This document shows, piece after piece, positions 9,253 to 64,000 of a stretch of DNA of 64,000 nucleotides (position 1 is the first letter of the stretch; each line of letters opens with the position of its first letter). A program made the translations under genes and the position numbers. Origin of the DNA: Schmidtea nova (lineage: Eukaryota); NCBI GenBank assembly GCA_044892505.1, contig CM097883.1, positions 227,726,001-227,790,000 of the forward strand, in the 5' to 3' direction. The notes below the pieces were generated by a model. It saw only the letters and a list, made by a program, of their open reading frames with translations, did not search any database and was not told the DNA's origin.

Positions 9253-10346
9253 AGTAGACAGAAATGTCCACCATGAGTCATACTTAAACAAAGACATATG
9301 ACTCATCGATGATTCATAACAAAGACAACGAGTCACCCTACCCCCGCCCCGATGACTAATTTTCTTTGTTATGACTCATCGATGACTCATTTTAAATTTG
9401 AATTTCCAAAGGTCAAATAAGGTCAAACCTTCAAACAAGGGTATCATTCGAAAAGTATTTGAGAGGTAAGTATGTTGGTCATACCCACGAAGGTGTATGG
9501 TGGGTGCTCAACCTTCAAAGGGTGCAAAACCTTCAAACTTTTTCAAACCTTGTGTGTATTATATCAAACAAAAGGTATTGGAGATGTGCACACAATGGTC
9601 ATACCTTCGAAGGTCTATGGTGGGTGCTCAACCTTCAAAGGATGCAAAACCTTCAAACTTTTTCAAACCTTGTGTGTAATATATCAAACAAAAGCTATTT
9701 GAGATGTGCACACAATGGTCATACTTTCGAAGGTCTATGGTGCGTGCTCAACCTTCAAAGGGTGCAAATCCTACAAACATTTTCAAACCTTGTGTGTATT
9801 ATATCAAACAAAAGGTATTGGAGATGTGCACACAATGGTCATACCTTCGAAGGTCTATGGTGGGTGCTCAACCTTCAAAGGATGCAAAACCTTCAAACTT
9901 TTTCAAACCTTGTGTGTAATATATCAAACAAAAGCTATTTGAGATGTGCACACAATGGTCATACCTTCGAAGGTCTATGGTGCGTGCTCAACCTTCAAAG
10001 GGTGCAAATCCTACAAACATTTTCAAACCTTGTGTGTAATATATCAAACAAAAGGTAATTGAGATGTGCACACAATGGTCATACCTTCGAAGGTCTATAG
10101 TGCGTGGTCAACCTTCAAAGGGTGCAAAACCTTCAAACTTTTTCAAACTTTGTGTGTATTATATCAAACAAAAGGTAATTGAGATGTGCACACAATGGTC
10201 ATACTTTCGAAGGTCTATGGTGGGTTCTCAATCTTCAAGGGGTCAAAAACCTTCAAAGATTTTTAAACATTACAAGTTATATATCAAACAAAAGGTAATT
10301 GAGAGTTGAGTATGATGGTCATATTCATGTGTGTTGTAACACTCCG
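9253..10346 (+). mobile_element. Polinton-type terminal region (left), homologous and inverted to 32610-33473
   Basis: Starts AGTAGACAG, matching the reverse complement of CTGTCTACT ending at 33473. Followed by an ATGA(G/C)TCAT cluster and the same 120-bp repeat family. Runs into an N-gap at gttgtaacactccg. Confidence 0.7.
9475..10314 (+). repeat. Tandem array of seven ~120-bp units
   Basis: Unit starts (a/t)tggtcata at 9475, 9595, 9715, 9835, 9955, 10075, 10195. Several units carry the perfect 12-bp palindrome ACCTTCGAAGGT plus ACCTTCAAA half-sites. Confidence 0.97.
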
Positions 10347-13329: not shown

Positions 13330-14557
13330 TTTATAACTAAATTTATTTGTTTCTTTATTCATTTACGTCAAAGTTAGGTAACAATATATTTATTATTTGA
13401 AATATGTTCAAGTATTGAGCTTTTGCACATAAAATCCATAACAGAATTGGTTCTGCTACTAGGGCTCTGCTCGCAATGTTCTGCTACGAAATGTTTTGTC
13501 ACTATGATAAATACATGAAAAGTTATTATACTATTGAGATAATCACACAAATTATTCTTACATTATAGTACAAATATATCAAAAATATATGAAATATACT
13601 TGAAATATTATCACAGTATCATTACATACATGAAATATCATTATACTATTGTGGAAAATATCATCATACTGCAATTACATAGAAAATCACCAAAGTTACA
13701 CACAAAATATGAAAAGTACATAGAATTTCGTTTCATACAAAAACATAATATATATGAAATATTATCAAAAATACATACAAAATACATAGAAATTTATCAC
13801 ACACGTACAAAATATCACCATACTATAGTGAATAAATATACATACAAAATATCAGAAATACAAACATACATAAAATATCATCTTACTATAGTTTGATAAC
13901 ATAGACATACATGAAATAACCACAAAATACAGAAACTTTCAAAGATATATAGATTCATCACACATACAAAATATCACATATAAGAAATATCATTACAGAT
14001 TATCACATGCATGAAATATTATTATTATAGTGCAAATTACATAGAAAGTAGCAAAGATACATGAAATATCATCACAAAATACACACAAAATTATAGGAAA
14101 TTTTCACACACTAGAAATACATACAATCATAATCATAAAAAGAATATTATCACGCCAGTACAAAATTATACACAGAATATTATCTCATTGAACAAAAGCT
14201 TATCATATATATTATTATACTTTTATGTAAACTACAAAAAGAAATACAAATATATACACAAAATATTATCACATTATAGTGCCTAAACATTAGAAATATT
14301 CACAAATTATATATAATATGATCATAAAATATCAAAGATTTACAAAGAAAATACACAAAAGATTATATTATTGTTTGATAACATAAAACTACATTGAATT
14401 ACATAGACAATGATTAAAATACATACAAGTATCATTACATACATGAAATATCATCATACTATAGTGCAATTACATATATATTCATCAAAAATATACAGAA
14501 ATTAATCAAATTCACAACAATATTCATTAAAGAAATATCTACATACTTGTGCAAACA

Positions 14558-15076
14558 ACAAAGAAAAATACAAACATATACACAAAATATTATCACATTA
14601 TAGTGTCTAAACATTAGAAATATTCACAAAATATATGAAATATGATCATAAAATATCAAAGATTCACAAAGAAAATACACAAAAGATTATCATATTATTG
14701 TTTGATAACATAAAACTACATTGAAATACATAGAAAATGATTAAAATACATACAAGTATCATTACATACATGAAATATCATTACACAAAATATTATAACA
14801 TGCATGAAATATCTACATACAAAATATCAAAAGTACATAGAAATAAATCCTATACACAAAGGATATCATTACATATATTAAATATTATCACAAAATACCT
14901 TTACATACATGAAATATCATCATACTTTGTTGCAAATACAGACTAAATATTATCATGCTATTTTGTAAATACACTTAATATTAAAAAGAAATATCATACA
15001 TACACAAAGGATATCATACACATGAAAATCTGTCATGTTAGTCAGTCAAATGCATGACTTATTATCATACTAGTGT

Positions 15077-15122
<46 letters not shown>

Positions 15123-17091
15123 CAAAAAATGTATCATACATACAAAGTATATCAATACAAAGTATCATTACATGCATGAAATATCATCATACTACAGTGC
15201 AATTACATATATAATAATCAAAAATATACAGAAATTAATCAAATTCACAACAATATTCATTAAAGAAATATCTACATACTTGTGCAATTACATAATAAAT
15301 ATACAAAACTATCAAAAATAGATGAAATATCATCACAAATATCAACACATATGAAATATTATCATACATACACAAAAGTAATAAAATCATACTTAGAAAA
15401 TCAATACATACAAAATATCAAAAGTTCATCACACATACAAAATATAATTACATATATCATCATACTATAATTTAACAGTAATAAATGTTTAACTAATGAG
15501 CTTTTGCACATAAAAACCATCACAAAAGATGTTCTGCTACCAATGTTTTGGTCGTAATGTTCTGCTACTAAATGTTCTGATACTGAATAAAATTGATATA
15601 AATGTAACAATGTATTATGAATGAAAATATATCTTACAAACATTACAGAAAATTCTACTTTAAAATGAGGTCGAATGTTTGAAGTGTCATCATACTATAA
15701 TGTAAATACATAAAAAATACTCACAAAGTAACATTAGATACATCAAATATTATCTTACTATAGTTTGATAACATAGAAAAAATATATAGAAATCATCAAA
15801 TTATACATACAAAATATTAAAAATAGATCATATTAAATGTCATTACAAAATACATATATATAATCATCAAAAATATACAGAAATTAATCAAATTCACAAC
15901 AATATTCATTAAAGAAATATCTACATACTAGTGTCATTACATAAAAAATATCAAAAATATATGAAATATCATCACAAATATCAATACATATATGAAATAT
16001 TATCATATATACAAAGGATATAATCACATACAAAACATCAAACGTTCATTACACATACAAAATATAATCACATATATCATAATACTATAATGTAACAGTA
16101 ATAAATGTTCAAATAATGAGCTTTTGCACATAAAAACCATCACAAAAGATGTTCTGCTACCAATGTTCTGATACTAAATGTTTTGCTACTGTATAAAATC
16201 AATGAAAATTATAGGAATAAAAATAAATCTTCCAAACATTACAGTAAATTCTACTTTAAAACAATGTTGAATGCATGAAATGTCATCATACTATAGTGCA
16301 AATACATGAAAATACTCACAAAGTGACATTAGATACTTTAAATATTATCTTACTATAGTTTGATTATAAATATATAAGTATGAAAACCCGTTTTGTTTTT
16401 TACAATAATGTTTAAATTCTTGATGTTTCTGTGATGTCTCATTGTAGTTAACCCGCGCGCGTATTTCCAATAATTATTTCACATCTTTATTGCAGATTAT
16501 CATTTTATTATATTAATTTCATGCTAGCAGTACATTGCGAACAGAACATTTAGTAGCAGAACCTTTTCTGTGATGGTTTTTATTTGCCAAAGCTTATTAC
16601 TCGAACATTTTTTGCAATTTATTCAGCATCATTTGTTCTAATATTTTCACCAATTAATATTTTCTCTAATGTTTTTTTTTAAATATCTATTAGTTTTCCT
16701 CATTTTTATGTAGGATTTACTCTAACAATTTATTGTCACTCGTATAATTTTCATTAAATTTATCCACTAGCAGAACATTTCGAACAGAACCTTTAGTAAC
16801 AGAACATCTTTTGTGATGGTTTTTATGTGCAAAAGCTCATTATTCACACAAATACTAAAATAACAATCATTAGCATATGAGCTTCGATCAATGTAACAGA
16901 TAAATTGTGAAAGCATATTACATTTACTGATACACTTTTAATGACAATTCTTATGTGAATATTTATTGTTTGATGAATTGCTATGTATGTTTGATGAATT
17001 TCAATGCATATTAGATATTTTGTGGTCATTTTCTTGTAATTACACTATAGAAGGATGATATTTAAGGTATTTAATAATACTTTGTGATGAC

Positions 17092-17161
<70 letters not shown>

Positions 17162-18554
17162 ATATGTATTTCTAATGTTTTTGTGATATTTTGTGATAAT
17201 ATTTTGTCTATGTTTGTATTTTTGATAATTTGTACATGAATTTCTATATATTTCGATCTATTTTTAATATTTTGTGTATATTTTGATGATTTCTATATAT
17301 TTTCTCAATGCTATCAAACTATAGTAAGATAATATTTAAAGTATCTAATGTCACTTTGTGAGTATTTTCATGTATTTGCACTATAGTATGATGACATTTC
17401 ATGCATTCAACATTGTTTTAAAGTAGAATTTTCTGTAATGTTTGGAAGATTTATTTTTATTCCTATAATTTTCATTGATTTTATACAGTAGCAAAACATT
17501 TAGTATCAGAACATTGGTAGCAGAACATCTTTTGTGATGGTTTTTATGTGCAAAAGCTCATTATTTGAACATTTATTACTGTTACATTATAGTATGATGA
17601 TATATGTGATTATATTTTGTATGTGTAATGAACGTTTGATGTTTTGTATGTGATTATATCCTTTGTATATATGATAATATTTCATATATGTATTGATATT
17701 TGTGATGATACTTCATATATTTTTGATATTTTTTATGTAATGACACTAGTATGTAGATATTTCTTTAATGAATATTGTTGTGAATTTGATTAATCTCTGT
17801 ATATTTTTGATGATTATATATATGTATTTTGTAATGATATTTAATATGATCTATTTTTAATATTTTGTATGTATAATTTGATGATTTCTATATATTTTTT
17901 CTATGTTATCAAACTATAGTAAGATAATATTTGATGTATCTAATGTTACTTTGTGAGTATGTTTTATGTATTTACATTATAGCATGATGACACATCAAAC
18001 ATTCGACCTCATTTTAAAGTAGAATTTACTGTAATGTTTGTAAGATATATTTTCATTCATAATACATTGTTACATTTTCATCAATTTTATTCAGTATCAG
18101 AACATTTAGTAGCAGAACATTACGACCAAAACATTGGTAGCAGAACATCTTTTGTGATGGTTTTTATGTGCAAAAGCTCATTAGTTAAACATTTATTACT
18201 GTTAAATTATAGTATGATGATATATGTAATTATATTTTGTATGTGTGATGAACTTTTGATATTTTGTATGTATTGATTTTCTAAGTATGATTTTATTTCT
18301 TTTGTGTATGTATGATAATATTTCATATGTGTTGATATTTGTGATGATATTTCATCTATTTGTGATAGTTTTGTATATTTATTATGTAATTGCACAAGTA
18401 TGTAGATATTTCTTTAATGAATATTGTTGTGAATTTGATTAATTTCTGTATATTTTTGATTATTATATATGTAATTGCACTGTAGTATGATGATATTTCA
18501 TGCATGTAATGATACTTTGTATTGATATACTTTGTATGTATGATACATTTTTTG

Positions 18555-18598
<44 letters not shown>

Positions 18599-19197
18599 AC
18601 ACTAGTATGATAATAAGTCATGCATTTGACTGACTAACATGACAGATTTTCATGTGTATGATATCCTTTGTGTATGTATGATATTTCTTTTTAATATTAA
18701 GTGTATTTACAAAATAGCATGATAATATTTAGTCTGTATTTGCAACAAAGTATGATGATATTTCATGTATGTAAAGGTATTTTGTGATAATATTTAATAT
18801 ATGTAATGATATCCTTTGTGTATAGGATTTATTTCTATGTACTTTTGATATTTTGTATGTAGATATTTCATGCATGTTATAATATTTTGTGTAATGATAT
18901 TTCATGTATGTAATGATACTTGTATGTATTTTAATCATTTTCTATGTATTTCAATGTAGTTTTATGTTATCAAACAATAATATGATAATCTTTTGTGTAT
19001 TTTCTTTGTGAATCTTTGATATTTTATGATCATATTTCATATATTTTGTGAATATTTCTAATGTTTAGACACTATAATGTGATAATATTTTGTGTATATG
19101 TTTGTATTTTTCTTTGTAGTTTACATAAAAGTATAATAATATTTCATATATATGATAAGCTTTTGTTCAATGAGATAATATTCTGTGTATAATTTTT
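14558..19197. repeat. Large foldback inverted repeat: arms ~14558-16364 and 17313-~19197, ~950-bp spacer, centre ~16838
   Basis: ORF-track peptides recur nearly identically on opposite strands (14737+/18938-, 15282+/18395-, 15643-/18034+). Inner boundary checked base by base at 16364/17313. Outer right end matches 14162. Related modular sequence extends left to ~13400. Confidence 0.92.
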
Positions 19198-20165
19198 TCG
19201 GTATTATTTTCATTGTCCTCTTTGGGAATTCTCGACATTGCATCGGCATTTGCGTTGGCTTTGCCTGCTCGATATTTAATCTCAAAGTCGTATTCTTGAA
19301 GTGCAATTGACCAGCGGATCAATTTACTAGGCGAATCTCAATGCTTCATTAGCCATTGAAGAGGGTTATGATCAGTGTACACAAAAAATTTTCTCCCCAA
19401 CAAATATTGTCTAAATGTAGCAATCCCATAAACTAACGCTAAAGTCTCTTTTTCAATCGTTGAATAATTTTTTTCATGTGGTCTCAAGGATCTGCTTGCA
19501 TACGCTATCACGTCATCTTTTTCACCGTCCATCTTTTGACCTAGTACAGCACCCAGTGCAACATTACTTGCATCGGTCATCAGTAGGAAAGATTTTGTAA
19601 AATCTGGACATCGCAAAATTGGTGCTGTTATTTATTTTTGATTCAATGCTTCAAAAGCTTCTTGTTGAGTTTTACTCCACACGAATTTATTATTTTTCTT
19701 TAACAATGAGTTTAATGGCTGAGCGATGTGCTAAAAATTCTTTATGAATTTTCTATAATAACTTGCTTATCCAAAAAATTGTCTTGCCTGATCAGGGTTC
19801 AGTGGAATTGGATACGCTTCAACTTTCTGAATATTTTCAGGATTAATTTTTAGGCCTCTTCGTGATATTATATGACCAACATATACCACTTCCGATTTTC
19901 CCCATTCACATTTCGGCGGTTTTATTTTTAATTTTGCACTTTTCAATCATTCGAATACTGTCTCGACATCATTAAGATGCTCGTCAAAGTCATTTGAAAA
20001 TATAATTATGTCATCAATATATACTAAAGCATGTCTAATGCCTCTCAATACGAAATTCATGCCTCTCTGGAATGTTGCCGGGGCTCCAGTTAAACCGAAC
20101 GGCAAGACATTAAATTCGTATAGGCCTTTACCATCCGAAAACGCTATATTATCTGCCGGTTTCAT
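19197..20165 (-). pseudogene. pol: Gypsy reverse transcriptase (C-terminal half) and RNase H
   Basis: [83 protein letters not shown]. Several stops. Confidence 0.95.
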
Positions 20166-20169: not shown

Positions 20170-22278
20170 CTTAATTGGTCCATCGGATAAGCTGGTAGAG
20201 GTTGAATAAATGAATTTGGTATACATAATCTAGTAAAGGTATCTTGATTACTGTTGTTAAAAAATGGTTTTTTTATGAATTGACATTTTTTTAATGTTTT
20301 AATTCCTTCGGTTTGTTTTCGCTCGTCTGAATATAGTGGTGTCTCTTCATCGGTATTATCATTGTCATTTTTGTCATCATTAGAAGCAGTGGTAATATTA
20401 CTATAGCTTCCCTTTTTCTTTTTCAACATTCGCGTTTTTAAAGTTTCCATTTCTTTATATTGGTGATGTGTAATGAAAATTCTTGCGAGCAATGGTACAC
20501 ATCTAATAACTAGTTTCCAGGACCAACCCGTGATAACATATAATCTATGTGTTGATAACACCTGCGATATTATTACTTTAATCACGATCCCGATCACATA
20601 AATTCCGATTAACCCAGCACAGGCTTGTCCAATAAACAAGAATTTTCCCCATATCTTTTTCATCGTATTGTATGTTGCTCTTTTATAATGATCAGCTGTC
20701 AATAGATAATCATAATTCACTTTCCCAGTTCCACTCGGGAGGATAGTGACTATCATCTCCATAATTACTCTTTCCTTTTTTGATGGAAATAATAAGTTTC
20801 TCCGAGCTTCTTCAATATCATCACTGGAATACAACCCACTTTGAGTCATACTATCTAAGGATGTAAAATTAATCAAATATTCCAATTTTGTCAACTCCAA
20901 CTTTTCTGGAACTTTGACTCCTCTATGATCCGGTAATGAAATCTACGATTCAGGTGTCAAGAGATATAATGGAGCAAGTAGTCTATTACATTGTAATACT
21001 TTGGGCTTCACTTCCTCAACCAATAAAATCCGTGTTACTGGTTCCATGAATCGTAGTTTTCCTTTAAAATTTACTGGCAATTCGTTTGTGCATTGGTCAT
21101 ATTTCATCAATTTAATGGGTACTGCTTTGCATTTATAGTTATACAATGCTTCACCATAATTTCTAGCGAATACTCCATTCTCCGATATTAACATTGGAGC
21201 AACTAAATTTGGATTAGTAATTGCCATCGCCATTCTATTTCGTAAAATTTCTTTATTTAATTTGCAGTCATTCAGTATGATTTCTCTGTACACGCTTTCG
21301 ACCGTATCCTGACCAAAATGGAATAAATAGTCAATTTTATTATTAAAATAGTTTGTTAATTTGATTTCTTCTGAGTAAAACTTGGTTTGAGCTTCTTCAA
21401 CAGTTTTTTTTTATACATATATTCCTTTATAATTTGTCTCGTAAACAGTTTGTCCACATTTGGTATTTGCACCATTTCTTAAAAATCTCATCCCATCATT
21501 TGGAAATATTGCCATTAATACCGTTGGAGTATTTTTCATTCGTATTGGAGTAACTCTAATTGTCGTATTAATCATCGAATATAAGACTACTAAATTTTAT
21601 AAGACTGTGCTTTCTGGTCTCTCTTGAATTTGCTCTCCCGTTATTTCTTTAAACGGTATTCACTTCAAATGTGCCAAATTACACTTTTTCGTATCTACAT
21701 CGTATACTAAAATATATTCACCTGTTTTACAACTGGTTTCTCACATGTTGCAAAATGGATGCGTTTGAAGTTTTCCTGTATCATCATCGAACGATCCATC
21801 AAATTGTCTCAACTCTGTTTCATACTTCTCTATCACAACGACTTTATCAATAACATTTGTATCCACTTTATACGTTTCACCTTCACACTCACCATTTGAT
21901 TTGATTGATCCTTTGACTGTAATTGTTTCGCGAATTTTATGATTTAATTTTGCTTTCAGATTAATTTCCTAATCTACTTTTAATTCTCCTGTTTGAAAAG
22001 CTGCCAAACAGTTTTCGGGAGTTATTTCGATTACTCTTGGAATTGAGTACATTTTGATTAGCGAAGAATGACTCCATTTTCCGCAATAAAATATAAATGT
22101 TGTCCTTTTTGCCGTACATTCTCTCACTTACACGCCTAAATCCTGACTCTTGGTACACATGATAAGTTACTTCACTTGACCATTTTAGATTCCTTGGATA
22201 CGCATCTATACATTCAGCTACACCTACTAATGAATACACTTTTCCCATTTCAGTTTGAGAAAAATCATATGCTACCAT
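20170..22278 (-). pseudogene. env: Envelope glycoprotein, chuvirus-G-like
   Basis: MVAYDxS...VYSLVGVAEC; ECTAKRTTFIFYCGKWSHSS; LRNRMAMAITNP; GEALYNYKCKAVP...CTNELPV...FMEPVTRIL; QSGLYS; TM FLFIGQACAGLIGIYVIGIVIKVII (~20556-20642). I recognise this cysteine/motif spacing as chuvirus-like glycoprotein. Stops and frameshifts present. Confidence 0.75.
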
Positions 22279-22395
22279 TGATGTTGTGGTGTTGATAATT
22301 CCTAATATTATAAAAATAAACATTGTCAACCATGGATATATTATTTTTCCCTTTTTTGATTCATACACCCTTTTTGAATTCTTCGGTTTTAGTAT

Positions 22396-22758
22396 CAAGT
22401 TTTCCCATCCACCATTACATTTAATCCAACTAGTCACATACGTATTTGTCACTTTTGAGGCTTTTTCAATCCACTTTTCTGATTTGTCCGACTCCAAACA
22501 ACCATATGTGCCAATTTTTAGAACAACATAAGCTAGAACTGTTAGCACTACGTCTCTGTTCAAACCATCTTTAATTAACTCCTGAATTACTGTTTCATCA
22601 CAAAATATACTTTCTTTGACGTTACTTTGAAGTATGATTTGGAGTCGCCTTTTCATCTGTCTCGCAAGTTGTTGTATGAATTCATCTTCGCATATATTCT
22701 CTTCGTCTAGTGCATATAGTTCCATTACCAACCCCTTTAAAATCAGTTCTGTTTCCTC
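22396..22758 (-). pseudogene. Bcl-2-family-like domain embedded in the retroelement reading frame
   Basis: BH1-like ELIKDGLNRDVVLTVLAY (cf. ELFRDGVNWGRIVAFF) and BH2-like VTSWIKCNGGWENL (cf. WIQENGGWDTF) at the right spacing, followed by a basic linker and hydrophobic helix PWLTMFIFIILGII. Confidence 0.75.
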
Positions 22759-23162
22759 CGAATCATTTGAGTCTATTTTATCGAACTCGGCTACGTCGTC
22801 TTTTCCAGTTATCTCAAAATCTTTCCGCTTACGGCTGTTACGTTCATCATTACTTTCCGTTTCTAAAAAATTCGATTCGTGTTTTATCCCTTCAATAGAT
22901 ACCGGCTCGTCATTTGTATCTTTAGATTCCTGATGTACTGCATCATTTTCATCAGTCATTATTGTCATCAGTCATACTTCCTATTTGCAATTCATTCAAA
23001 ACTTTATCTTTTGACTCGTAGTTTTCTAACTTAGCTTCGTTTAATTCATTAGATATTTCAGTTTTAATTTCTTTGGACTTTATATCTTCATCTGTATCCC
23101 TTGCAATTCTAGGCCAATGCGAGACGATAGCCTCATTATCAACCATATCATCCGTTTGCTTC

Positions 23163-23377
23163 GTGGCATATACATTATTTATATAATTTGGATTACATCC
23201 ATAGTTAACTAAATATTCGTCATCGTCTAGCTCGATTCCTCTAAATGTTAATATAATATTCCCATCATTACCCATTGTCTCTGCAGACTTTCGTCGTAAT
23301 TTCGATACCATTGCGCTCCAATGCTCTTGAAAGTACTCAACTTTTCCTCCTATGTTTAGAGATATTACTAATGACTT
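23163..23377 (-). pseudogene. Ubiquitin-like domain 2
   Basis: LVISLNIGGKVEYFQEHWSAMVSKLRRKSAETMGNDGNIILTFRGIELDDDEYLVNYGC aligns by eye to ubiquitin ([20 protein letters not shown]). In frame with ORF 24694-23426 across one TAA. Confidence 0.6.
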
Positions 23378-23639
23378 CAGATTACTATCCGATTCTCTGT
23401 AATCATGTCCTAGTTTTCGTATAGTTTATTTTAATCTCGCTTGATAACTCGTCTTCTTATGAATATAAGGTAAAATGCATTCAAACAATTTCTCTTTAGA
23501 CTTTTGACTCATTTGTGAATTCAACATAGATTCAAGACATTTATTAATCTCATCTTTATCTCCAATATACAACATATCTCGCAGATCTTGCAGAGTTTCC
23601 TCCCAACTTTTAAATTCTGAATTTGAAATATTAACAGTA

Positions 23640-23860
23640 TTTATAATTCTAACCTCATTTTTGAATCCCGGGATTAAACCAAAATCGACCAAGTATTTAT
23701 CATCCCTCAGTTGACCCATTTGCGGTTGTATCAGTTCTACACTGCTTCCATTATATTTAGTCATAATAAGTCCTTTCAAGTCTTTTATTTGTCCATAAGC
23801 ATTAATAGAAAATTGAGTTCTCAAATCATTGATGTCTGTGGCTTCGACAAAAATATCATC
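23640..23860 (-). pseudogene. Ubiquitin-like domain 1
   Basis: IFVEATDINDLRTQFSINAYGQIKDLKGLIMTKYNG...LIQPQMGQLRDDKYLVDFGL aligns by eye to ubiquitin (IFVK...TIENVKAKI...[15 protein letters not shown]). Confidence 0.62.
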
Positions 23861-24339
23861 TAAATTGTTTTTGAATCGTAAAGCTCTCCCAAATATTCTC
23901 ATTAGTTTGGCAATTCTGTCATCTCGATGTGCGTTGTAGGACTTAGCACATAGGTTCAATATACTTTTCAATTTTCTTGGACTGAGTGACATTCGGCTTA
24001 GCTCTGTTATCCACTCTTTCAATCTTGGATTGTTTCTTTCCATCCTTGCGAGCCATCCTTCCACTTTCTTTATCAATAACGTAGCCTTTTCATTCAACAA
24101 CTCATCTTTTACTTTATTAGCAAAATTTCCTTTCACTTCTGATACATTTTCATATACCATAAAGAAGTCTGCTTCATCATCCGATTCGAATTTGGACATC
24201 AACTTGTTTAATTTCTGTCTCATTTCCCGAAATTTATTTTCCATTTTTTCTTTGAACTCGTCTTTTTGAGCATAAGCTACATTGGCATTGGACGATTCGT
24301 CTTGAAATCTAATTGATTTCTTTAGGATAGGTCTTCCAA

Positions 24340-25415
24340 ACCTTTCCGAATTTCTTGGGCATGATCGAGCCATGTGGCCATAACTTTTGCATGAATGGCA
24401 TTGAATGTGTCCATTGGCATTCACTTTTTCTCGTTGCGATGAAGGAGATGTGGAGGGTGATCGAGTTCTTGAAAAGCAATTTCTGCTAATATGGCCCATT
24501 TTTCCATATCGATAGCATTTAATGTCAACATTGTTTGGATTGTTTTCCATAAAATTTCTTTTGGGACTAATATTTCTGCCATTTTTGAACCAACATTGAT
24601 TTGAATAATGTCCGACCTTCTTGCAATACTCGCATGCAATATTATTCGATCTCTCGTTGGTCTGATTACTAAAGGTTGCTGCTATTAATTTCAAATTTAT
24701 TACCTAATCTTGGAGAGCTGTTTGGTTGGATTGGTTTCTTTGATTCCCATTGATTCTTTACTGGAGTTATTGATCTTTCTCGTTTATCAACATTGATGGC
24801 AAATACGTCAGACTTTTGGGTGCTTTCTAAATTCAATTCCATCTTCATTGCTTTTCTCACCAATTCGTCAAAATTCGAAAAATCCACGTAACACAATGCC
24901 TTTTTGATTTCAGGATGGGCTCCCGTTATAAACTGATCTTGAAGCAGTTCTTTGACTTGTTTCATCATTTCAACTTGCTCAGGCTTTATTTCGAATACTT
25001 TATCTGCTAAAATAGTTAAATGGTAGGCGAACTCACTTACCGATTCATTTGGATTCTGCACTTGATTGTAAAACTTTTGTTGCATTATTCTTTTGCCATC
25101 TCCTCCCACCAATTTCATCGTCATTGCATCTTTTAATTTGGCCCAATCATTTCCAACTGTCTTTTTATCAACTTGCTGACAAGCTTCTCTCGCAGCTCCC
25201 TTTAGATATAATGGAAATCTTTGTGCCATAATGGCTTCTGACCACCCATATGCTGAAGCGTACATATAATAATCACCCATAAAATCAGCAAATTCTACTG
25301 GGTCTCCTCCATATTGATTCACCGGCAACTTTTGGCAACTTGCGAAATCAATAATCTCGGCATTCTCTTTAGCCATATTGATTATTTTTCGGCTTCTCAA
25401 GTTATACTCGCTCAA
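24340..25415 (-). pseudogene. gag: Gag (capsid-like plus three CCHC zinc knuckles), one frameshift at ~24680
   Basis: YGGDPVEFADF...FPLYLKGAAREA...QNPNESVSEFAYHL...DQFITG; CEYCKKVGHYSNQC, CYRYGKMGHISRNC, CHSCKSYGHMARSC. Confidence 0.92.
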
Positions 25416-25543: not shown

Positions 25544-25561
25544 ATCACGTCGGGCTCACCA
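25544..25561 (-). promoter_or_regulatory. Primer-binding site, tRNA-Trp type
   Basis: TGGTGAGCCCGACGTGAT matches the well-known tRNA-Trp PBS TGGTGACCCCGACGTGAT at 17/18 positions. Lies 6 nt inside the LTR end (cccaata). Confidence 0.85.
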
Positions 25562-25567: not shown

Positions 25568-26600
25568 TATTGGGTTTAATTAAAACAGATATTATCGTCG
25601 GTGCCTGACTCCTCGTGTTCAAACAAATCAGTAAGTAATAACACTCCCAATGTATATTTGTTTAGATCGACACAATCTTTTTACAATTCACAGCAATAAT
25701 AATACAACGTCCTAATTATTCGATCGAGCTCCGCCGTGCGATGTGGTGACCTCGTGCGCTCTATAGCAATAATCACTTTGCATATCAGAATCCTCTGGAT
25801 TGATCTCTTTTTCTTTAATAATTTCGCCTTCCTTTGAATCAGCTCCTTTTTAATTTCTTTACTCTTTTTCTCTCGTATTTTCCTATTTCTTCTGACTCTG
25901 CTACCTTTAACCTAATCTCGTTTTCTTCTCCCTAACGATTGTTTTCAATTTAGAGTTTCCTTATATAATAAGATAATCATTTTGATTAATTAGTAATTTG
26001 GCCAAATCGCCTCTGTCTGACAATGCTTTGACAATCATTTTTCTTGAATATCGTCTGAGAGCTTATAGTGATTGATTGCCCTCTTCTGTTACCCTTTCGT
26101 ATTAACCAATTTGTTTACTCCTATTACTCATAATGACAGGATAATGGCTTTTCCGAAATCCGCTTTGTTTACTCTCCTTGTTTGCCGAGCTCGGGTTTTC
26201 TTCATCTCTCGGGTTCTCCATTAGCTCGGGTTTCCCATTCGCTCGGGTTTTCCATTATCCAATTAATTAATTAATTAATGGTTTTTTTTGTTTTTGTGCA
26301 TATGTATGCTTTCCGACCCTTTCTGAACATTTTCTGACCGATTCCTAATCATTATGTTCTTCACCAATAGCTAATCTATACCTGTCCTGTTTTCTACATT
26401 CAATTTCGATAAATTAACCATTTATTCATTTTTCTTAATTTGCACATTTGCATTTCGAATTTCACTGTACCATATCCTAACTCTGTTTCCCTTATAATTT
26501 CCTTGGTTATTCGTTCTGTGCTTGATCACACTTCTCCATATACCTGTTTCATTCAATTTTCATCTAGAATTTCATTTAAAATTTTATTTATAATTTTATT
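25568..26600 (-). mobile_element. 5' LTR of the env-bearing element (outer end truncated or uncertain)
   Basis: Ends cccaata next to the PBS. Contains 4x ggaaaacccgag-type repeats shared with LTR pieces at 8.2, 33.6 and 53.3-53.5 kb. Confidence 0.6.
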
Positions 26601-26850
26601 TAAAATAATTTTGATTTAAAGACCTTAACACATTAATAGCATTTGTTTTCAATGAAGGCAATATTTTCTGATCTTTCATGATAACGTCTTTGGCAGTTTT
26701 CATTCCAAAACTAACTAATCGCTTAAGTATTGGAAGTGCAAATTTACCAATAGTTTTCAGCCAACCTGATCCATACTGTTTACCTACAAAATACGGTAAT
26801 TCGCCACCAGCTTGGCTATTACTGTACAAAGAAACTATATCAGGATTATG
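26596..26850 (-). pseudogene. Polinton/adintovirus small core-like protein, 3'-truncated
   Basis: QAGGELPYFVGKQYGSGWLKTIGKFALPILK matches the conserved QxGG-xLPxF-G...GxG...FRxAxPxLK pattern of Maverick/adintovirus virion proteins. Confidence 0.7.
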
Positions 26851-27860
26851 TATCGCTTTTTCGAAAATGTAGAGTCAAATGAGTTTTTGAATTTTTTGGA
26901 AAGTTTATTAAATTACCTCTATCGTCTCTGATATTAATTTCTATATTGTTTATACAAGACGTTAAAACAGTTCAATACATTGGATTTTCTACTTGTATTT
27001 GAACAACTTCATCCTGTTCATGTTTTTTAATCCATACCGATTTTACCATGGGAACTAATGAATCGCCAACAATTATAGGATTGACTATTATACTGTAAAT
27101 GAACATTTGTTGATGAAGTTTAATTATTTTCGGTTTATTTATTCCTATATTTAAATATCCATTTTGAGCGTATGTTGCTTTCGCTAGTCCTAACGTTTGT
27201 ACGAGGTTTCTGTCAAAAGTAATTTCACTAATATCAGGATTCAAACTGAATATGAAGTAAATATCATCTATCAATTCCAATGATTTAAAGATACTTGCAC
27301 AATTTTGAATCATATATGATTGCATTTCATCCAATTTCGATATGTATAAGTTATCTTTAAATGTATATACAAAATCAGTATCAGCCTTGAACTCCATCTT
27401 GAATCTAATTTTTCAAATCTTTCGCCAACTTTGTTATATTTAGGTAACGGTATCTTGTAGGACTTTCAGAACTCTGTTTCGGTAATCATAATCTTTTTGC
27501 CATTGCCAAAGTATCAAATGTTATTGTGAAGGGATAATGATCACAGGTGAAATAAATAGAATTCTTATCGCTAGACATTTGAGCAATATCATCGGCAGGA
27601 TTAGATATATCAACTTCATTTTGTAGATTGTCAATAACCAAATTATTTTATTTGGAGTGCAAAGTTTTCATTTTGTATCGAATTTCAGCTTTACTATAAA
27701 ATGGAAATGGATTATAGACAAATGTAAAGTCTAATAGAGCGACTTCCCAAATACCGTCTAAATAAATCGGATTTTGTAGATTGACCATGAATTTACTGGC
27801 AGTATTTTCTGGATCTATATCGGGACAACTGTTGCTAGGTAAAACAATATAAAAATTCAT
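26846..27860 (-). pseudogene. Minor capsid protein (penton, single jelly-roll) of Polinton/adintovirus type
   Basis: N-term MNFYIVLPSNSCPDIDPENTASKFMVNLQNPIYLDGIWEVAL; C-term MFIYSIIVNPIIVGDSLVPMV...IEINIRDDRGNLINF...LTLHFRK. Premature stops and one frameshift. Confidence 0.85.
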
Positions 27861-28888
27861 TTTACTAGGTTTTTTGATGATATCCATGATGGTTCTTTAT
27901 ATCCATGCCACTTGACATAGTATTGTTTATCTTTATCAATATTTTTTGAATTCTAAATATTGTCGGCAGGGGAATAACTTGCAATTCTTGTTCAAAGAAT
28001 TTTCCACTGACTATATTGTTATCAGAGTCAGAAATAGTATACATGACAGGATTCTGGACTGTGTTGACATTCGATATTTTAAAAACCTCATCACTCCAAT
28101 TACTATCAAAGTTTTTAATGAATGGCGATTCACTAATTTTACTAATTTGAACATGATCACCAATTTTATATTTTGGTTTCTTTATTTTTATATCACTCAA
28201 GATATTTTCAGTATCAACTACTTCAGCAGGTTTCTTGCCATTTATACCTCGATGAGCAGAATGATTATAACTATGAATCATTTGTGGTAAAACATTAATC
28301 CATGTTTTATTCCTTTGATGCAGAAAATACTTTTTGAGACGATCCCTCAAGGTACGATTAAATCTTTCAACATGGGCTGCTTTGAATTGAGAGAATACCG
28401 AGTAATGATTGATTCCCTTTATGGCTTCCTTGACTTTACTGTTGTAAAATTATTTGCCTAGATAAATAAATATCATTTTATAAAAAATTTATTAGCTTAC
28501 CCAAATCAGTTTGTAAATTATTTGGACGTCCACCTTTGAACATTGTTTTGATTGCGATTTCCATATCATTGGCAGATTTAGATTTTACTGGAACAGCCCG
28601 AGCAAATCGACTGTAAACATCAATACATGTTAAAATATATTTGTATCCCTTGTTAATTTTTGAATAGGGAATCATTTCCATCAAATCTATTTGCCACAAA
28701 TCATTAATTCTATATGTTTTGTATGCTCGTGTCGGAAACCTTTTCAGCATAGGTTTGTTTAGACTGTATGCAAGTTGCCCCGAAAACCAACTTTGAGTTT
28801 GTCTTTTTGAATTCGATACATATTTCCTTAGCTTTTTGACTCCACCAAAACCTGCTTCGTGCTTTGGGTTCGTCCATATCTTCTCCAT
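27857..28888 (-). pseudogene. Polinton c-integrase (rve, DDE) with C-terminal chromodomain, interrupted by a 43-nt intron
   Basis: WQIDL...YKYILTCIDVYSR, LQTDLG|K*FYN, HVERFNRTL, FDSNWSDEVFKI, YYVKWHGY...SWI. Removing 28500-28458 restores the frame. Confidence 0.92.
28458..28500 (-). other. Spliceosomal GT-AG intron (43 nt) in the integrase
   Basis: GTAAGC...tatttatttatcTAG. Splicing joins GAT TTG G to GC AAA (T/G)AA TTT TAC AAC, giving the conserved TDxGxEFxN motif. Confidence 0.8.
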
Positions 28889-28943
28889 TACAGCAAGAAG
28901 ATTTAAAGTTTAAATTAAGATTAGGCAATGATTGACCCATTGT

Positions 28944-29290
28944 TTATGACCTTTTTCCTAATAAACCAGCACCTCTCAATAATGATAATGCTAATGGTAA
29001 CAATGCTGCAATAAACCCTCCTTGTTGTTTATATATTATTTTACGCATTAGTTTTTTATTTTTTGTTTTTACAAGTGAGAAAAAATGCTTCTTGTGTTTG
29101 TTCAAAACTCTTCTATTGGATGCACTTATTGATTTTACCTCTAACAACTTTATTTAAAATCGTTAGTAAATCATCAATAACGTAATTAGGAAACGATTGT
29201 AAAATACTCATTCTTCTAATACTTGGGGCTTTAAGTAATGCATTGAAAAATGGGAAACTACGATGATGTATTTGTTTTGCATTTGGTTTG
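28944..29290 (-). pseudogene. Conserved small basic Polinton/adintovirus protein with C-terminal QQGG-F amphipathic peptide, frameshifted
   Basis: FFNALLKAPSIRRMSIL...VIDDLLTILNKVVRGKI joined by frameshift to RRVLNKHKK...KQQGGFIAALLPLALSLL. Confidence 0.7.
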
Positions 29291-29489
29291 TAAGTATTTT
29301 GAATACGATTATCCTTTATGAATATTATCAATAAATAATTGTTTAGATGGTGTAAAACTAGTTTTCGAAACTGATTTCTTTGTTTTCTTTGGAACTTTTT
29401 TTTCCCCGGTTTCTTCATTTTTCTAGCCTTTATCAATCGCTCAAACTTTACTCGAGATTTCAATAACATTATTGAAAATATACAATTAA

Positions 29490-30113
29490 TCAACTTTGTT
29501 TATAAACCATGGCTCCTTCCTTGTTGAAAATATCTGTTCTAACTCTTAAATCATCACTACATTGTTGTGTGAAATCAAGAAAAAGATATCCATGAGGAGC
29601 TTTTGTAGCATCTTGGAATGCATCAATCAAGAAATTTCGATTAGAAGGGTGTGCTTGTCTTGCAAGAAAGTCAATAACTTTTGCTTCTCTAGGATTTTTA
29701 AAAACAACAAGATATTGAACATTCAAATTCCGGGTTCGATGATTGTCGCCCTGATGAAATAAATTCTGAGTAATAAAAATAACTGTAACACTTTTGAGTC
29801 TAGCGAGTTTTGTAAATAAATTGTTAAAATCCTTTTCTTTATTTGCTTCTTGATACAAATCATCAATAATAATCACATCCCCTTCTCTTAATCTAGATGA
29901 CCAATTTTTATCGAAACCTTTTATGATTGTCATTTTTATTTTACAAAATTGGTCTTGAGTCATTCCATGTTCCTCATCTGCACCCCTATGCCAATAAATT
30001 TTATTAAACTTTGATTTGAATAATTTTGATTGTAATAATTTACAAACAAATAAAGTTTTTCCACTCCCGCTCGGTCCAACAATTCGAAACACTGCATCAT
30101 TTCCTAATTCCAT
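29490..30113 (-). CDS. A32/FtsK-like DNA packaging ATPase (Polinton/adintovirus)
   Basis: Intact 207-aa ORF. Walker A GPSGSGKT, Walker B VIIIDD, IFITQNLF, RTRNLNVQYLVVFKNPR, HGYLFLDF. Confidence 0.93.
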   Translation of the reverse strand: MELGNDAVFRIVGPSGSGKTLFVCKLLQSKLFKSKFNKIYWHRGADEEHGMTQDQFCKIKMTIIKGFDKNWSSRLREGDVIIIDDLYQEANKEKDFNNLFTKLARLKSVTVIFITQNLFHQGDNHRTRNLNVQYLVVFKNPREAKVIDFLARQAHPSNRNFLIDAFQDATKAPHGYLFLDFTQQCSDDLRVRTDIFNKEGAMVYKQS

Positions 30114-30204
30114 ATTTCTTATTTTATTAATTAATTATTATTGTTTATATTTGTTTTAAATAATAATTGTTTTTATTATTGTCATATTTAAAATATTTTC
30201 ATTA

Positions 30205-30666
30205 ATGATTAGCAACATAAATTATAAGGGTAAGACTGATGTATCGCACATGAATTTTCCTAAGGGGAAACCACAACAAATTGTAAATAGAAGTGGTAAA
30301 TATCCGATAATATATTTTAAGACCGGGAGATTTAGAATTATGGGATGCAAGGAATTTATTAGTGATGAAAGGGTTTACGACTTAACAATACAATTGATTA
30401 CTGTAATTGCAGATTGAGGATTTATTTGTGATTTAAATGATTTGGCTAAATTAATAGAATGTGTTTACGAGCCAGAATTATTTCCAGCTTTGAGATATGC
30501 AAAATATAACCCCATGTGTGTTAATATATTTACAAGTGGTAAAGTAGTTATATTAGGTTTAAAAACTAGGGACTATTTAAATATAGTTGATAATATAATT
30601 ATGGATATAAAATCAATTATTGAAGATAAAGCCTTTGTTGATTTCATATTATCGTGTGACTCATGA
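30205..30666 (+). pseudogene. TATA-binding-protein-like gene (two-repeat core, ~153 codons) with one in-frame TGA at 30415-30417
   Basis: Repeat 2 YEPELFPALRY...VNIFTSGKVVILGLK versus TBP YEPELFPGLIYR...LLIFVSGKVVLTGAK. Repeat 1 IIYFKTGRFRIMGCK versus LIFSSGKMVCTGAK. The two track ORFs are in one frame. Confidence 0.8.
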
Positions 30667-30698
30667 TTGCAATAAAGATGCAAAAGAAATGCATGATT

Positions 30699-30804
30699 CT
30701 GATTGGTTCAGTATGTATTTCGATAATAAAGACATGTTATGCATACTCAAATCTGATTGGTTGATTGCGTGTTTCATTTTCTTGCGTGTTCTTTGGTATA
30801 TATA
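30699..30804 (+). promoter_or_regulatory. Pol II-type promoter: two CCAAT boxes and TATA
   Basis: CTGATTGGTT at 30699-30708 and 30753-30762, TATATATA at 30797-30804, ATG at 30839. AATAAA at 30671 just after the TBP-like stop. Confidence 0.5.
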
Positions 30805-34374: not shown

Positions 34375-36830
34375 CTGATTATAGATTTCTAAACCAAATC
34401 ACAGAACCAGGCAGCTACCCATTACCAATTATAAAAGACATAATTATCCGAATAAAGGGCGCAAAATACTTTTCAAAAATAGATCTGCAAAAAGCATATC
34501 ATCAGATCCCAATAAGGAAAGAAGACATAAAAAAGACTGCAATAACAACACCGGTCGGAATGTTTGAATACAACCGAATGCCTTTCGGTCTACGAAACGC
34601 AGCAGCAACTTTCCAGCGATATATGGATCAAACAACGAAAAGCAACAAAAACACAATCGCCTATCTGGACGACATATTAATAACTAGCCCAGACAAAGGA
34701 ACACATTTAAACGACATTAAAAACGTGTTTGAGACATTAAAAAATGCAAAACTAAAAATCAACGCACAAAAATGCGAATTCATAAAAACCGAAATAAACT
34801 TCCTTGGACATACCCTAAACGAAAAAGGAACACAACCAATCGGAAACAAAATAAGCAACATTAAAAATTACAAATTGCCAATTACCACTGGGGAATTGAA
34901 AAGATTCCTGGGAATGGTAAACTTTTACCACTCTTATATTCCAAACTGTAGCAAATTATTGGCACCACTAAATGACATAATAAAATCAAAACGAAATGTC
35001 AAAATAAATTGGACTCAACAGACAACCGAAGCTAAAGAAAGCCTATCACAAGCAACATTACTTGGATATCCAGATCCAGAATTAGAATATCAACTAACAA
35101 CAGACTGTTCAGGTTTCGCAATGGGCGCAAATATTTATCAGGACAATCAATTTGGAAAACAACCAATAGGATTTTTCTCGAAAAAACTAAAGTCACATCA
35201 AATCAGAAATTCGACTTTTGACAGAGAACTCCTAGCAATACATGATGCAATTTAACATTTTCAACACTTATTAGAGGGGCAAACTTTTAAAATATATACT
35301 GACCACAAGCCCCTAATAAATGCAATAGCGATGAAGAATCCATCGCCAAGACAAATTCGACAATTAAATTTTATTTCCCAATTCAATTGCACTATAAATT
35401 ATGCAGCTGGAAAATCTAACGTCGCAGCAGATGCCCTATCTAGAATTGAAAGCGACATAAACTCCTTAGAATTCGAGGAAATAATAGAAATGGAACAAAT
35501 TAAACCTAAACAATCCGAGACAATAAGAAAACGTCCTACAAAACATAGCCTGAAACTTCAGGAATACAACGGAGTATGGTACGACATATCAAATGAAACC
35601 AACAAACGAATATTACTCCCAGAAGACTTCCGAAAAGGATGCATTGAAAAGATACATACAATAAATCACCCGGGAAACAAAACAACATACGAACTAATAC
35701 ATAACAATTATGTATGGCTCAACATGAGAACCGATATAAAGAATTTTGTAAAAAGTTGTCCAAATTGCCAACTAAACAAAACTTCAAAAAAATTCAAAAC
35801 TCAAAAGGTGAATTTCCCAAGCAGTCAAGCTTTTGAGATAATTCACACTGACATTGTAGGACCACTGCCACCAAACGAGGACAACAAATACTTACTGACA
35901 ATTATAGATAGAAAGACTAATTGGTTTGAGGTAATACCAATAAAGGAAATCACTGCTAAAAATATTTTCGAAATGATAGAACTAAACTGGATAGCTCGCT
36001 ACGGCCAACCAAAAACAATTATAACTGATCAAGGCAAACAATTCGAATCGGAAATGTTCAAGGTTCTTTGCAACAAATACAACATTAAAAGAAACCGAAC
36101 AACAGCCTACAACCCACAATCAAACAGAAATATTGAACGGTTTCATCGAACGCTGAAAGAAAGCATTAGAACCAAAGCTAATGATCATAGTTGGTTAAAT
36201 CAATTACCCACAATACTAATTGGTTTAAGAAATTGTCCTAATTCAACTGATAACGAAAGTCCTGCACACAAAGTATTCGGTAAATCAACAAATTTACCAT
36301 CACTGAAAACTAACAGTCAAAACAGAAAAGAAACCGAAATAAACAAATCAATTGAAAACAAACCAAAGAGAATCTTAAAAAAGAGATAAAACTCCGAAAT
36401 GGATAGAAAAGTAGTTTTAACGACAGACTACATCTTGATTAAAAAGCCCTTCACAAAAGGTTTCGAACCAAAATACGAAGGCCCATTCAAACTGTTCGAA
36501 ATTAACAAAAACGTAGCAACAATAATAAAAGACAACGTCAAAACAAGAATTAATCTAAGACAAATAAAACCTTACCACAACAATCAAAACATATGAAACA
36601 ACCCCACAAAAGACAAAGCACCGACACAAACAAAAACACAACCAAACCACAAACACATCACATTCAACCACAAAAACACAATAAAACTTTTCGACAAGGA
36701 CTCAATAATCACACCCCTATACATAAATCGATACAGCGAATGCTTTAAATAAAAACAGAAACACACACAAGCAAAACACATGCACAACATAGCTAATTGT
36801 ACAGTTTTTTTTATTTTTTTGTAAATATGT
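34375..36830 (+). mobile_element. pol: 5'-truncated Gypsy pol: RT - RNase H - integrase
   Basis: IDLQKAYHQIP, MPFGLRNAAATFQR, YLDDILI, TTDCSG, TDHKPL, HPG...CPNCQ (HHCC), HTDIVGP, ITDQGKQFES, ERFHRTLK, KYEGPF. Scattered stops. Confidence 0.95.
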
Positions 36831-40763: not shown

Positions 40764-41825
40764 TCTAAATAGTATATTAGCCGACGCCCATCACCGAGTA
40801 GATCTATCGTTATTTTATAGTCTCAAAATCATCAAAATCAAATCACACTTACATTTTTTAAAAGAATGCAAAAGAAGAAACATCATTCCCGTGAGCCTGA
40901 CTGTTACCAACAAACTGGAATCAACCTATCCATCTTTACAAGCATTGAAGCTTAAGGAAAAACAGGAAAAAGAATGGCTTAAGCTTAGCATATCAGCTTG
41001 TTACAAAAAGCTAAATGAATTTACTAGTTTTACTTGTGCTCCTCTTACTTGTGAAGATAATACTTGTTGCCAGAATTTCTCCAAAAATCTCGACATTCGC
41101 AAGCATAAAAAATTAGAAACGCTACTTTCAACAAATTCAAACAACACTAAAGACACTAACTCACACTCAAATTCAATTCTTCCATTTACAAACAAATCTA
41201 ATCACATTTTTTCAAAAACACAAGAAAACATCCTCGCTCTAGGGACCATCTTTTGTTCCTCCACCTAACCAGAAAGATTTAGAAAAAGCCGAAGTCATCA
41301 CTAACGCCTCTCTTATAAGCCTAAGAAGACAAATAGGATACCATCTAAAACCAATTTCATTCACCAAATCTTCAAGTTTAGCTGAAAAGCACAATCATCT
41401 TCTGGATCCAAATCGTAGAACATATCCAAATATGCCTGTCTTTTCGACTGAACTTGAAGAAAAAATCAGCTTTTTTAGAAACTAAAGTCAAAACTTTAGT
41501 CAAAGAACAAATTATCTTTCTTCAAAAACATTGCTCAACACAAAATTCTTTCACTTCAAACATAAAGAAAATTAAGAATTCCAAAGACTTCACAATTCTT
41601 CATTCAGACAAAACAAATCGACTAATTGCCCTTGACACAGAACAATACAATACTCTATTTGAAGAACATCTCTCGAACTATGAACCGATAAACAAAATAA
41701 TCTTACCTGCATCAACTCAGATTTTATACAATAAGAAACTTTCATCACTTGCAAATAAATAAATTAACCTTCAAATCAAAGATTTACTTTTAAAATGCAA
41801 CTGCAGTGAGCCTTTACCTAGTAAT

Positions 41826-43310: not shown

Positions 43311-43399
43311 AATAAATTTTTTCATCCAATAAAATCATTATAAAATATTAAAAAAATAATTAAGGCTACTATTTCGGATTAAGTAAATATAACGATAGA

Positions 43400-43441
43400 A
43401 ATACACACTTGATAAAGGCTGTGCCGAAATATTGTGTTATT
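43400..43441 (+). ncRNA. Minimal type I hammerhead ribozyme, U3-A8 variant, in Penelope pLTR
   Basis: atacacac-TTGATAA-a-ggc tgt gcc-GAAA-tatt-gtgttatt. Further copies at 47370-47410(-), 47863-47905(+), 48161-48203(-), 50608-50649(-), 50661-50703(+) and 63374-63416(-). Confidence 0.7.
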
Positions 43442-43487
43442 GTTTATAAAAAAAAATTTTGATCTATAGTCATTATGAGAATTATTG

Positions 43488-49983: not shown

Positions 49984-49986
<3 letters not shown>
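48137..49986 (-). mobile_element. Penelope copy, 5'-truncated at an (AAT)n tract; 455-aa open RT-GIY-YIG segment
   Basis: Near-identical to the 41.6-43.4 kb copy, with a nonsense change at ~49680. Confidence 0.95.
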
Positions 49987-59000: not shown

Positions 59001-59083
59001 TCTATATCTGCCTTCTCAGGAGGTTTTGCTCTGATTCGGTCTTTGTTGAGATCTCCTTGGAATTGAATGGCATTTATCGAAGC

Positions 59084-63289: not shown

Positions 63290-64000
63290 ATCTTTTTTCA
63301 CCTTTGATCTTTTTTTATTATTATTATCAATAATTCTCATAATGACTTTAGATCAAAATTTTTTTTTATAAACAATAACACAATATTTCGGCACAGCCTT
63401 TATCAAGTGTGTATTTCTATCGTTATATTTACTTAATCCTAAATAGTAGCCTTAATTATTTTTTTAATATTTTATAATGATTTTATTGGATGAAAAAATT
63501 TATTTTAATTTTTTTGTGCGAATTGAATGTTGATGGACGGTTTGTATTTTTTTATGAAAAAAGTCTCGGAAGCTAATCTTTGTAATGAATTTTTGAATCC
63601 CTCTTGTAGGATCTGGCATTTTGTTTCTTCTATAGATGGAGTTGTTTTATGTACTTTTTCCCAGTGTTCGTAATAATTACTGGTTTTGATTTTAGTATGT
63701 TCATTAAGTCGGGTGCGAAAAGTTCTATGTGTTTCTCCTATGTAAGTAGCGTCACATTTTTGACAAGAAAGTTTATATACTATATTTTTGGAAAAGCAAA
63801 AGCATCGGGTTGTGGAACGGCAAAGACATTTATGTTTGGAGATGTTGGAAATTGGTGGCTTTCGGAGTTGTGATTTTAACGGTGCGGAGGTTATGAATGT
63901 TGGACGGATGTGGATAGGCAAATCTGTTTGATTAAAAATGTTGGTGATTTTGTTGGCTGTAGTGTCATTTAGGAAAGGTAATCTTAGATATGTTGTGTGT
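63290..64000 (-). mobile_element. Penelope 3' portion running off the right edge
   Basis: GIY-YIG ORF 63921-63505 and pLTR nearly identical to the 48.1-48.8 kb copy. Confidence 0.95.

Follow-up and report, generated by a model that had tools for sequence, protein, structure and literature searches.

A doubled unit of predicted four-helix and ubiquitin-like folds in the polyprotein of envelope-bearing Gypsy-type retroelements from Schmidtea nova

The minus strand of the window (the entire 64,000-nucleotide stretch of DNA analyzed here) carries a decayed, dead LTR retroelement of the Gypsy type with an envelope, in which two segments are predicted to be ubiquitin-fold domains, referred to as Ubl1 and Ubl2. 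Each is preceded by a helical domain (H1 and H2, respectively), and the repeat unit is a four-helix bundle plus a ubiquitin-like (Ubl) domain, both folds being predicted, present twice. New are this helix-Ubl unit, the finding that a compact family carries it doubled, the loss of the surface that ubiquitin normally uses for binding, and the purifying selection; the other features were largely anticipated. Because a Ubl has already been reported at the same spot in related flatworm elements, the news lies mainly in the doubled module.

Architecture of the element and its sister copies

Features of the window copy are given below in order of transcription, with the evidence for each in parentheses.

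25568..26630, minus strand: 5′ LTR of about 1.06 kb, ends approximate (TG start at 26630; close copies align up to 26601)
25544..25561, minus strand: primer-binding site (18-mer 3′ of the LTR, identical in four sister loci, one change in a fifth)
24679..25376, minus strand: Gag capsid region, frameshift near 24679 (PF03732, E 5.8e-8; tblastn frame change)
24350..24635, minus strand: nucleocapsid with three CCHC knuckles, the middle one degenerate in the window copy (PF00098, E 2.2e-9, three stretches; translation)
24266..24286, minus strand: candidate protease site N-[VI]-A-[YF] 3′ of the nucleocapsid (kept in 5/5 subfamily representatives)
23861..24106, minus strand: helical domain H1, four helices predicted (model helices 2-76; aligns with H2)
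23630..23860, minus strand: Ubl1, predicted beta-grasp without Gly-Gly (PF00240 in a sister copy; PDB profile matches; model strands and helix 84-159)
23390..23610, minus strand: helical domain H2, with a private stop at 23428-23426 (four-helix model of close copy L067)
23156..23377, minus strand: Ubl2, predicted beta-grasp without Gly-Gly, in the better conserved of the two units (VIA match to ISG15; dN/dS)
22760..23150, minus strand: acidic linker of low conservation, with a frameshift between 23009 and 22941 (28% mean identity across five subfamilies)
22387..22758, minus strand: Bcl-2-like domain (sequence profiles: PF00452, E 0.0013, which falls short of the curated cut-off; PDB profile matches to Bcl-xL/Bcl-2, best E 0.0032)
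22278..22345, minus strand: hydrophobic segment between Bcl-2 and Env (present in 5/5 subfamilies; hydropathy peak in 3/3 covering frames)
20400..22277, minus strand: gB/class III-type envelope glycoprotein, disrupted by a frameshift and stops (PF24664 in four pieces, best E 1.8e-26)
19191..20144, minus strand: C-terminal part of RT and RNase H remnant (PF00078, PF17917)

Compared with an open sister frame, the window copy is frameshifted near 24679, between 23009 and 22941, and near 22127, and it has stops in Env and RT as well. The protease and the start of RT are deleted at about 20140, where the match to the sister frame jumps from residue 1775 to 2190, and the integrase is absent. The TAA that interrupts H2 is seen in only one of 12 close copies and is therefore attributed to decay. 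The LTR matches the 1059-bp LTR of a sister copy in patches at 75–79%, and a 3′ LTR was not found within the window. The primer-binding site presumably corresponds to the 3′ end of tRNA-Trp, whose complement it resembles.

In sister copies a single frame encodes Gag, the doubled helix-Ubl unit, the Bcl-2-like domain, a membrane segment, a gB-type Env, and Pol, and whole frames are 3232–3442 aa long. A DNA search of the genome gave 237 candidates, of which all 40 that were scored match (18 at 86–100%, 22 at 72–73%), and protein searches revealed further subfamilies at 35–58% identity; copy and subfamily counts from these searches are lower bounds. Among 20 sister loci, both Ubls lie in one frame in 12, Gag to Bcl-2 in eight, and Gag to RT in three. 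An LTR pair was recovered for three of the four copies tried, with LTR-to-LTR lengths of 14.5, 16.5, and 17.0 kb. The preliminary description of this DNA had placed the Ubls within Gag, downstream of the nucleocapsid; that position is correct, but the block is part of a Gag-Env-Pol polyprotein rather than of Gag alone.

Sister subfamilies differ in several further respects. Gag of L074 and L146, which represent two subfamilies, has four CCHC knuckles, not three, and Ubl2 of the same two copies has an insertion of 12–16 residues ahead of its last strand. Two sister subfamilies carry a separate ORF of 483–485 aa 3′ of the polyprotein (L098:1686-3134 and L100:1386-2840, 37% identical to each other) that includes a DEDDh exonuclease of the ISG20-like type (PF00929, E 1.2e-5; PDB ISG20, E 1.3e-6); no long ORF of this type is among those listed for two loci of the L030/L027 subfamily. 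In four copies (L013:915-2050, minus strand; L094:2-1396; L098:3-1289; L100:3-1151) the frame stays open beyond the integrase: a hydrophobic segment is followed by about 350 residues and, at the C-terminus, by a membrane segment. This extension is a putative second membrane protein and has no clear Pfam family.

The window contains other repeats as well. Directly upstream of the LTR, positions 26600-30700 hold pieces of an rve integrase (PF00665, E 2.3e-8), a P-loop ATPase with a weak Pox_A32 match, and other ORFs, which we take to be a likely decayed element of the Polinton/Maverick type; sister copy L019 is flanked by a similar stretch. A large inverted repeat at 14200-19140 (arms 15079-16364 / 17313-18598 at 99%, plus 14547-15127 / 18548-19128) adjoins the element where its 3′ end is truncated. 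Elsewhere are inverted copies, 98% alike, of a 1.8-kb repeat (41616-43459 / 48143-49986 / 63312-64000), a 120-bp tandem array of about seven copies (9322-10341), and further Gypsy pol remnants (2-715, 34377-36299, and 58235-60157).

Predicted folds and the doubled unit

The two segments had been aligned with ubiquitin by eye, and their minus-strand positions are confirmed (Ubl1, 23860 to about 23630; Ubl2, 23377 to about 23156). That alignment needed relatives for testing, because the window segments alone give little or no match: neither matched a Pfam family at E ≤ 1, and in BLASTP against host ubiquitin Ubl1 gave no alignment and Ubl2 an E of 0.015 over 17 residues. The Pfam check proposed in the preliminary description thus came out negative for the window's own segments and positive for relatives, since PF00240 was matched by four of 12 rows in an alignment with them (best E 2.6e-5) and PF11976 by three. 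Sister copy L016 matched PF00240 at E 0.0095 alone and 0.0024 in context, short of the curated Pfam cut-off (18.1 bits vs. 25.4; 23.5 for database protein P0008). In a PDB profile search, 57 of the 60 matches listed belong to the ubiquitin family, as judged from names or our own reading; both units were matched, each match is weak (best E 0.0011), and the matches include domains of ubiquitin, Rad23, ubiquilin, NEDD8, ISG15, and UHRF1. Against single host ubiquitin, hhalign was likewise weak (20.3% for unit 1, 2.7% for unit 2, and 0.3% for a helical control).

Structure prediction agrees with the reading by eye. An AlphaFold model of L016, whose Ubl1 and Ubl2 are 61 and 73% identical to those of the window, contains a beta-grasp fold in each Ubl (mean pLDDT 80.8); how the four domains are arranged relative to one another is not fixed by the model, whose pTM is 0.46. 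In VIA, Ubl2 aligned to ISG15 over 75 residues (Z 11.5, rmsd 1.7 Å), and all 50 rows listed are, by their titles as read, ubiquitin/SUMO-type domains or proteins tagged with them. Ubl1 was aligned there only in rows spanning both domains (7sbi, 149 residues; 5b83, 146; 7eao, 145). In Foldseek, the same model is matched best by ISG15 and linear di-ubiquitin (E 1.4e-6). An ESM Atlas search, taken as a lead only, reached best scores of 0.78–0.80 with several ubiquitin clusters, and a homodimer prediction for the two-unit block scored 0.00, which gives no verdict.

What had been described as a helical linker between the Ubls is helical, but it is a four-helix domain rather than a linker and has a homologue, H1, ahead of Ubl1. 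H2 modeled from the close copy L067 and folded alone gave four helices at a pLDDT of 89.8. A PDB profile search placed the helical domain in no family; in VIA, HEAT-type solenoids (best Z 9.1) and TFIIS-N domains tie at Z 7–9. Helical domains that act as TFIIS-N (TND)-like readers could, together with the Ubls, dock on chromatin, transcription factors, or the element's own integrase, and TND/LW domains do account for four of the 50 VIA rows listed (Z 7.4–8.1) and for Foldseek ranks 7 and 18, with the LEDGF IBD at rank 40. We regard this reading as very improbable, however: Foldseek gave the helical domain no match at E ≤ 0.001, the HEAT solenoids score as high as the TND rows or higher in VIA, there is no sequence support, and the TND has five helices according to the part of PMC9987994 consulted, vs. 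four in our model.

The two halves of the block resemble each other in sequence, with hhalign aligning the profiles of units 1 and 2 across the last helix and the Ubl (96.9%, E 1.5e-10). Two units are present in all 11 genome frames tested, which come from four subfamily groups. A representative protein search gave eight matches, one of which, the repeat protein P0003, was dropped as spurious; a word-indexed homologue search with full-length proteins found none at E ≤ 0.001 among 1481 candidates. P0001 has two units, P0002 one and part of another, and the Gag-bearing P0004 and P0007 one each, P0005, P0006, and P0008 being too short for a unit count. By eye, P0004 continues into a Bcl-2-like W-x-x-x-x-G-G-W stretch. 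The one-unit relatives show that doubling is not required by all such elements. In a tree of the units, six genome unit-1 rows group apart from the unit-2 rows with support of 93/98, and the doubling therefore likely predates the genome subfamilies sampled; the complete split between units 1 and 2 appears in only 36% of bootstrap trees because of the long, unplaced row P0001_u1.

Binding surface, selection, and candidate roles

When aligned to host ubiquitin (L104), none of the 11 Ubl rows ends in Gly-Gly; the only GG pairs lie within loops, and both Ubls continue in frame into more polyprotein. The view that neither Ubl ends in Gly-Gly and that both are integral, non-conjugatable modules is therefore borne out. 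The equivalent of Lys48 is kept in none of the 11 rows, Ile occurs at position 44 in two, and the patch formed by Leu8, Ile44, His68, and Val70 is not conserved. At the Ile44 position, Ubl1 has Lys in all four sister rows and a gap in the window row, and Ubl2 has Thr or Ile in the four genome rows shown and Arg or Lys in others. Core positions (L43, F45, L50, D52, L56) are kept and surface positions are not; Ubl2 retains instead E-H-W, a basic helix, and L-x-D-D-E-Y.

These losses bear on several proposed functions. ESCRT and proteasome ubiquitin receptors use the Ile44 patch. With neither Gly-Gly nor this patch, processing by deubiquitinases (DUBs) is therefore unlikely and canonical docking to ESCRT or the proteasome is unsupported, which goes against two roles suggested in the preliminary description. 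Cleavage by DUBs would parallel the ubiquitin insertions of pestivirus polyproteins, and the viral fold matches do include BVDV ubiquitin-insertion polyproteins beside giant-virus ubiquitin proteins, yet with both C-termini lacking the diglycine throughout we give this explanation almost no credence. Alternatively, the Ubls could replace a late domain by recruiting ESCRT or other ubiquitin receptors for budding. An Env is present, so envelopment is presumably needed, and ubiquitin fused to retroviral Gag can replace late domains; however, with mostly Lys, Thr, or Arg at the Ile44 position and Leu8, His68, and Val70 lost, this role is quite unlikely, and any part of the Ubls in budding may be of a non-canonical kind. 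A degradation signal that, in the manner of Rad23 or midnolin, routes the precursor or the block to the proteasome or p97 and so tunes protein amounts is decidedly unlikely. Ubls of Rad23, ubiquilin, parkin, Dsk2, and midnolin are among the structural or profile matches, and TIGR00601 (rad23) was matched by two of 12 rows at E 0.014, but the structural matches are tied with SUMO and ISG15 at 8–23% identity and the receptor-binding patch is lost.

Codon comparisons indicate that the doubled unit is under purifying selection. All dN/dS ratios are rough because dS is 0.4–3 on about 75 codons: between the window and L016 they are 0.26 for Ubl1, 0.08 for Ubl2, 0.22 for H1, 0.07 for H2, and 0.05 for the capsid; and in the pairs other than window and L016, 0.15–0.65 for Ubl1, which is under weaker constraint (0.65 and 0.40 in two pairs), and 0.08–0.20 for Ubl2, the pair L074 and L073 giving 0.15 and 0.08, respectively. 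Together with the shared frame of both Ubls in 12 of the 20 sister loci, this bears out the conservation across copies for which the preliminary description had asked.

We tentatively read the doubled unit as a non-conjugatable, host-binding accessory block that acts together with the Bcl-2-like domain. The single frame, the doubling, the lost Gly-Gly and Ile44 patch, and the selection are observed and the folds predicted, and from these we infer the function. The hydrophobic segment after Bcl-2 would serve both as the signal peptide of Env and as a Bcl-2 tail anchor, which would leave the block tethered to the membrane on its cytosolic face. The element's protease may cut the block from Gag at the conserved N-[VI]-A-[YF] site, and the freed block could then engage proteins of the host's ubiquitin system or cell-death pathways by a surface peculiar to the element, for which the E-H-W loop of Ubl2, its basic helix, and the acidic D-D-D-E loop, all conserved, are candidates. 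One raw RNA run was uninformative on expression, with 15 reads, 14 of them only 90–95% alike and none across the Ubl region.

The block could instead stay on Gag and substitute for a matrix protein, coupling the capsid to the Env-bearing membrane through the Bcl-2 tail anchor. All subfamilies seen have it in frame, with the nucleocapsid on one side and the membrane segment on the other, and there is no matrix-like region N-terminal of the capsid, Gag starting about 15–40 residues ahead of the capsid core. On the other hand, H1, H2, and Ubl1 diverge much faster, with 39–45% mean identity across five subfamilies as against 82% for the capsid and 77% for Env; nucleocapsid and block are separated by a conserved candidate protease site; and the number of units differs among relatives. 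We consider a matrix role rather unlikely. Such a link between Gag and the Env-bearing membrane, if real, would account for the envelopment of Gypsy elements that lack a matrix protein. Unlikely, too, is a bolder version, in which the four-helix and Ubl units, Bcl-2, and anchor form a matrix substitute peculiar to GAG-ENV-POL elements. The internal signal peptide of Env would double as the Bcl-2 tail anchor, a captured host cassette would tie the capsid precursor to the Env membrane and blunt cell death, and the unit would represent an undescribed retroelement domain family with a copy number of one to several.

Relation to known systems and a second ubiquitin-bearing element

The elements with the accessory block we favor have close published counterparts. 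In planarian Burro elements a Ubi2/SUMO-like motif is flanked by MATH and BCL-2, Env is in frame, and several apoptosis and ubiquitination domains are present, according to the consulted parts of PMC6431247; work cited in PMC13465017 (consulted in part) reports that an IAP cargo of Burro1 shields stem cells from death by caspases. The apoptosis and ubiquitination domains and the IAP cargo speak for the accessory reading. The Ubls had been called unusual in Gypsy Gag, which applies to Gypsy at large but not to planarian elements, given the Burro motif. As described in those parts of PMC6431247, Burro/GYPSM1 shares with the present elements a Gag with three CCHC knuckles, a Ubl upstream of BCL-2, an Env between gag and pol, and one polyprotein. 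Burro is larger, however, at >30 kb and 4873 aa (about 4900–5100 aa) vs. 14.5–17.0 kb and 3232–3442 aa here, and the text on it mentions one Ubi2/SUMO-like motif and no helical partner, in contrast to the doubled helix-Ubl unit of our elements (PMC6431247, same parts). The MATH, BIR, ankyrin, and dUTPase cargo of Burro had no such Pfam match here in the pieces scanned, which lie outside the protease-RT stretch.

Six GAG-ENV-POL elements of 14.5–18.0 kb with a gB-type Env have been catalogued in Schmidtea mediterranea, and these (Smed_errantivirus_1-6) share gene order, Env type, size, LTRs, and primer-binding site with the present elements (PMC13524379, in the parts consulted). The printed Env stretch of Smed_errantivirus_1 agrees with L146 at about 130 of 156 residues, or about 84%, counted by eye. 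The word "ubiquitin" occurs 0 times in the main text and seven supplementary files of PMC13524379, where the insert between Gag and Env has no annotation in the parts consulted, and 0 times in PMC13238120 and PMC6338049. We found no paper on tandem Ubls in such elements; bioRxiv supplements and Repbase/Dfam, outside our search, may already note the domains. The present work refines a known oddity, namely ubiquitin-like and Bcl-2-like cargo inside the polyprotein of planarian-type envelope retroelements. Structural and binding studies can now start from exact domain borders, and with its 15 kb the compact family is more tractable than the 30-kb Burro.

Among tandem-Ubl proteins, ISG15, FAT10, OASL, and linear di-ubiquitin likewise have two beta-grasp domains, and ISG15 and di-ubiquitin are the top fold matches. 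Their Ubls abut, whereas here an 80-residue helical domain stands ahead of each and the C-termini lack Gly-Gly; the sequences are 8–23% identical. Atg5 has the same order of domain types (Ubl, helix-rich domain, Ubl) and appears at Foldseek ranks 42 and 49 (E 4–5e-5). Capture of Atg5 was considered; the match to the whole model is weak (TM 0.18–0.23, rmsd about 21 Å), an extra homologous helical domain comes first in our elements, and their two halves are a tandem duplication.

A different, high-copy LTR element in the same genome has a BEL/Pao-type Gag (DUF1759, E 2.5e-11) and was seen at L115, L116, and L120-L123 (e.g., L123:1-3216, minus strand; G000:C1:391876527-391879742). It encodes a near-canonical ubiquitin in frame just ahead of Gag, with L-R-L-R-G-G kept in five of the six copies shown, and by analogy with pestivirus insertions it could use host DUBs to make the N-terminus of Gag. 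This ubiquitin-Gag arrangement is arguably more striking than the tandem Ubls themselves. Ahead of the ubiquitin lies an Hsp70 piece (PF00012, E 1.5e-77), along with pieces that by eye resemble glutathione reductase, RNA polymerase, and HECT. Of the 150 PF00240 matches scored in the genome, most sit in long frames, likely of this BEL/Pao-type family.
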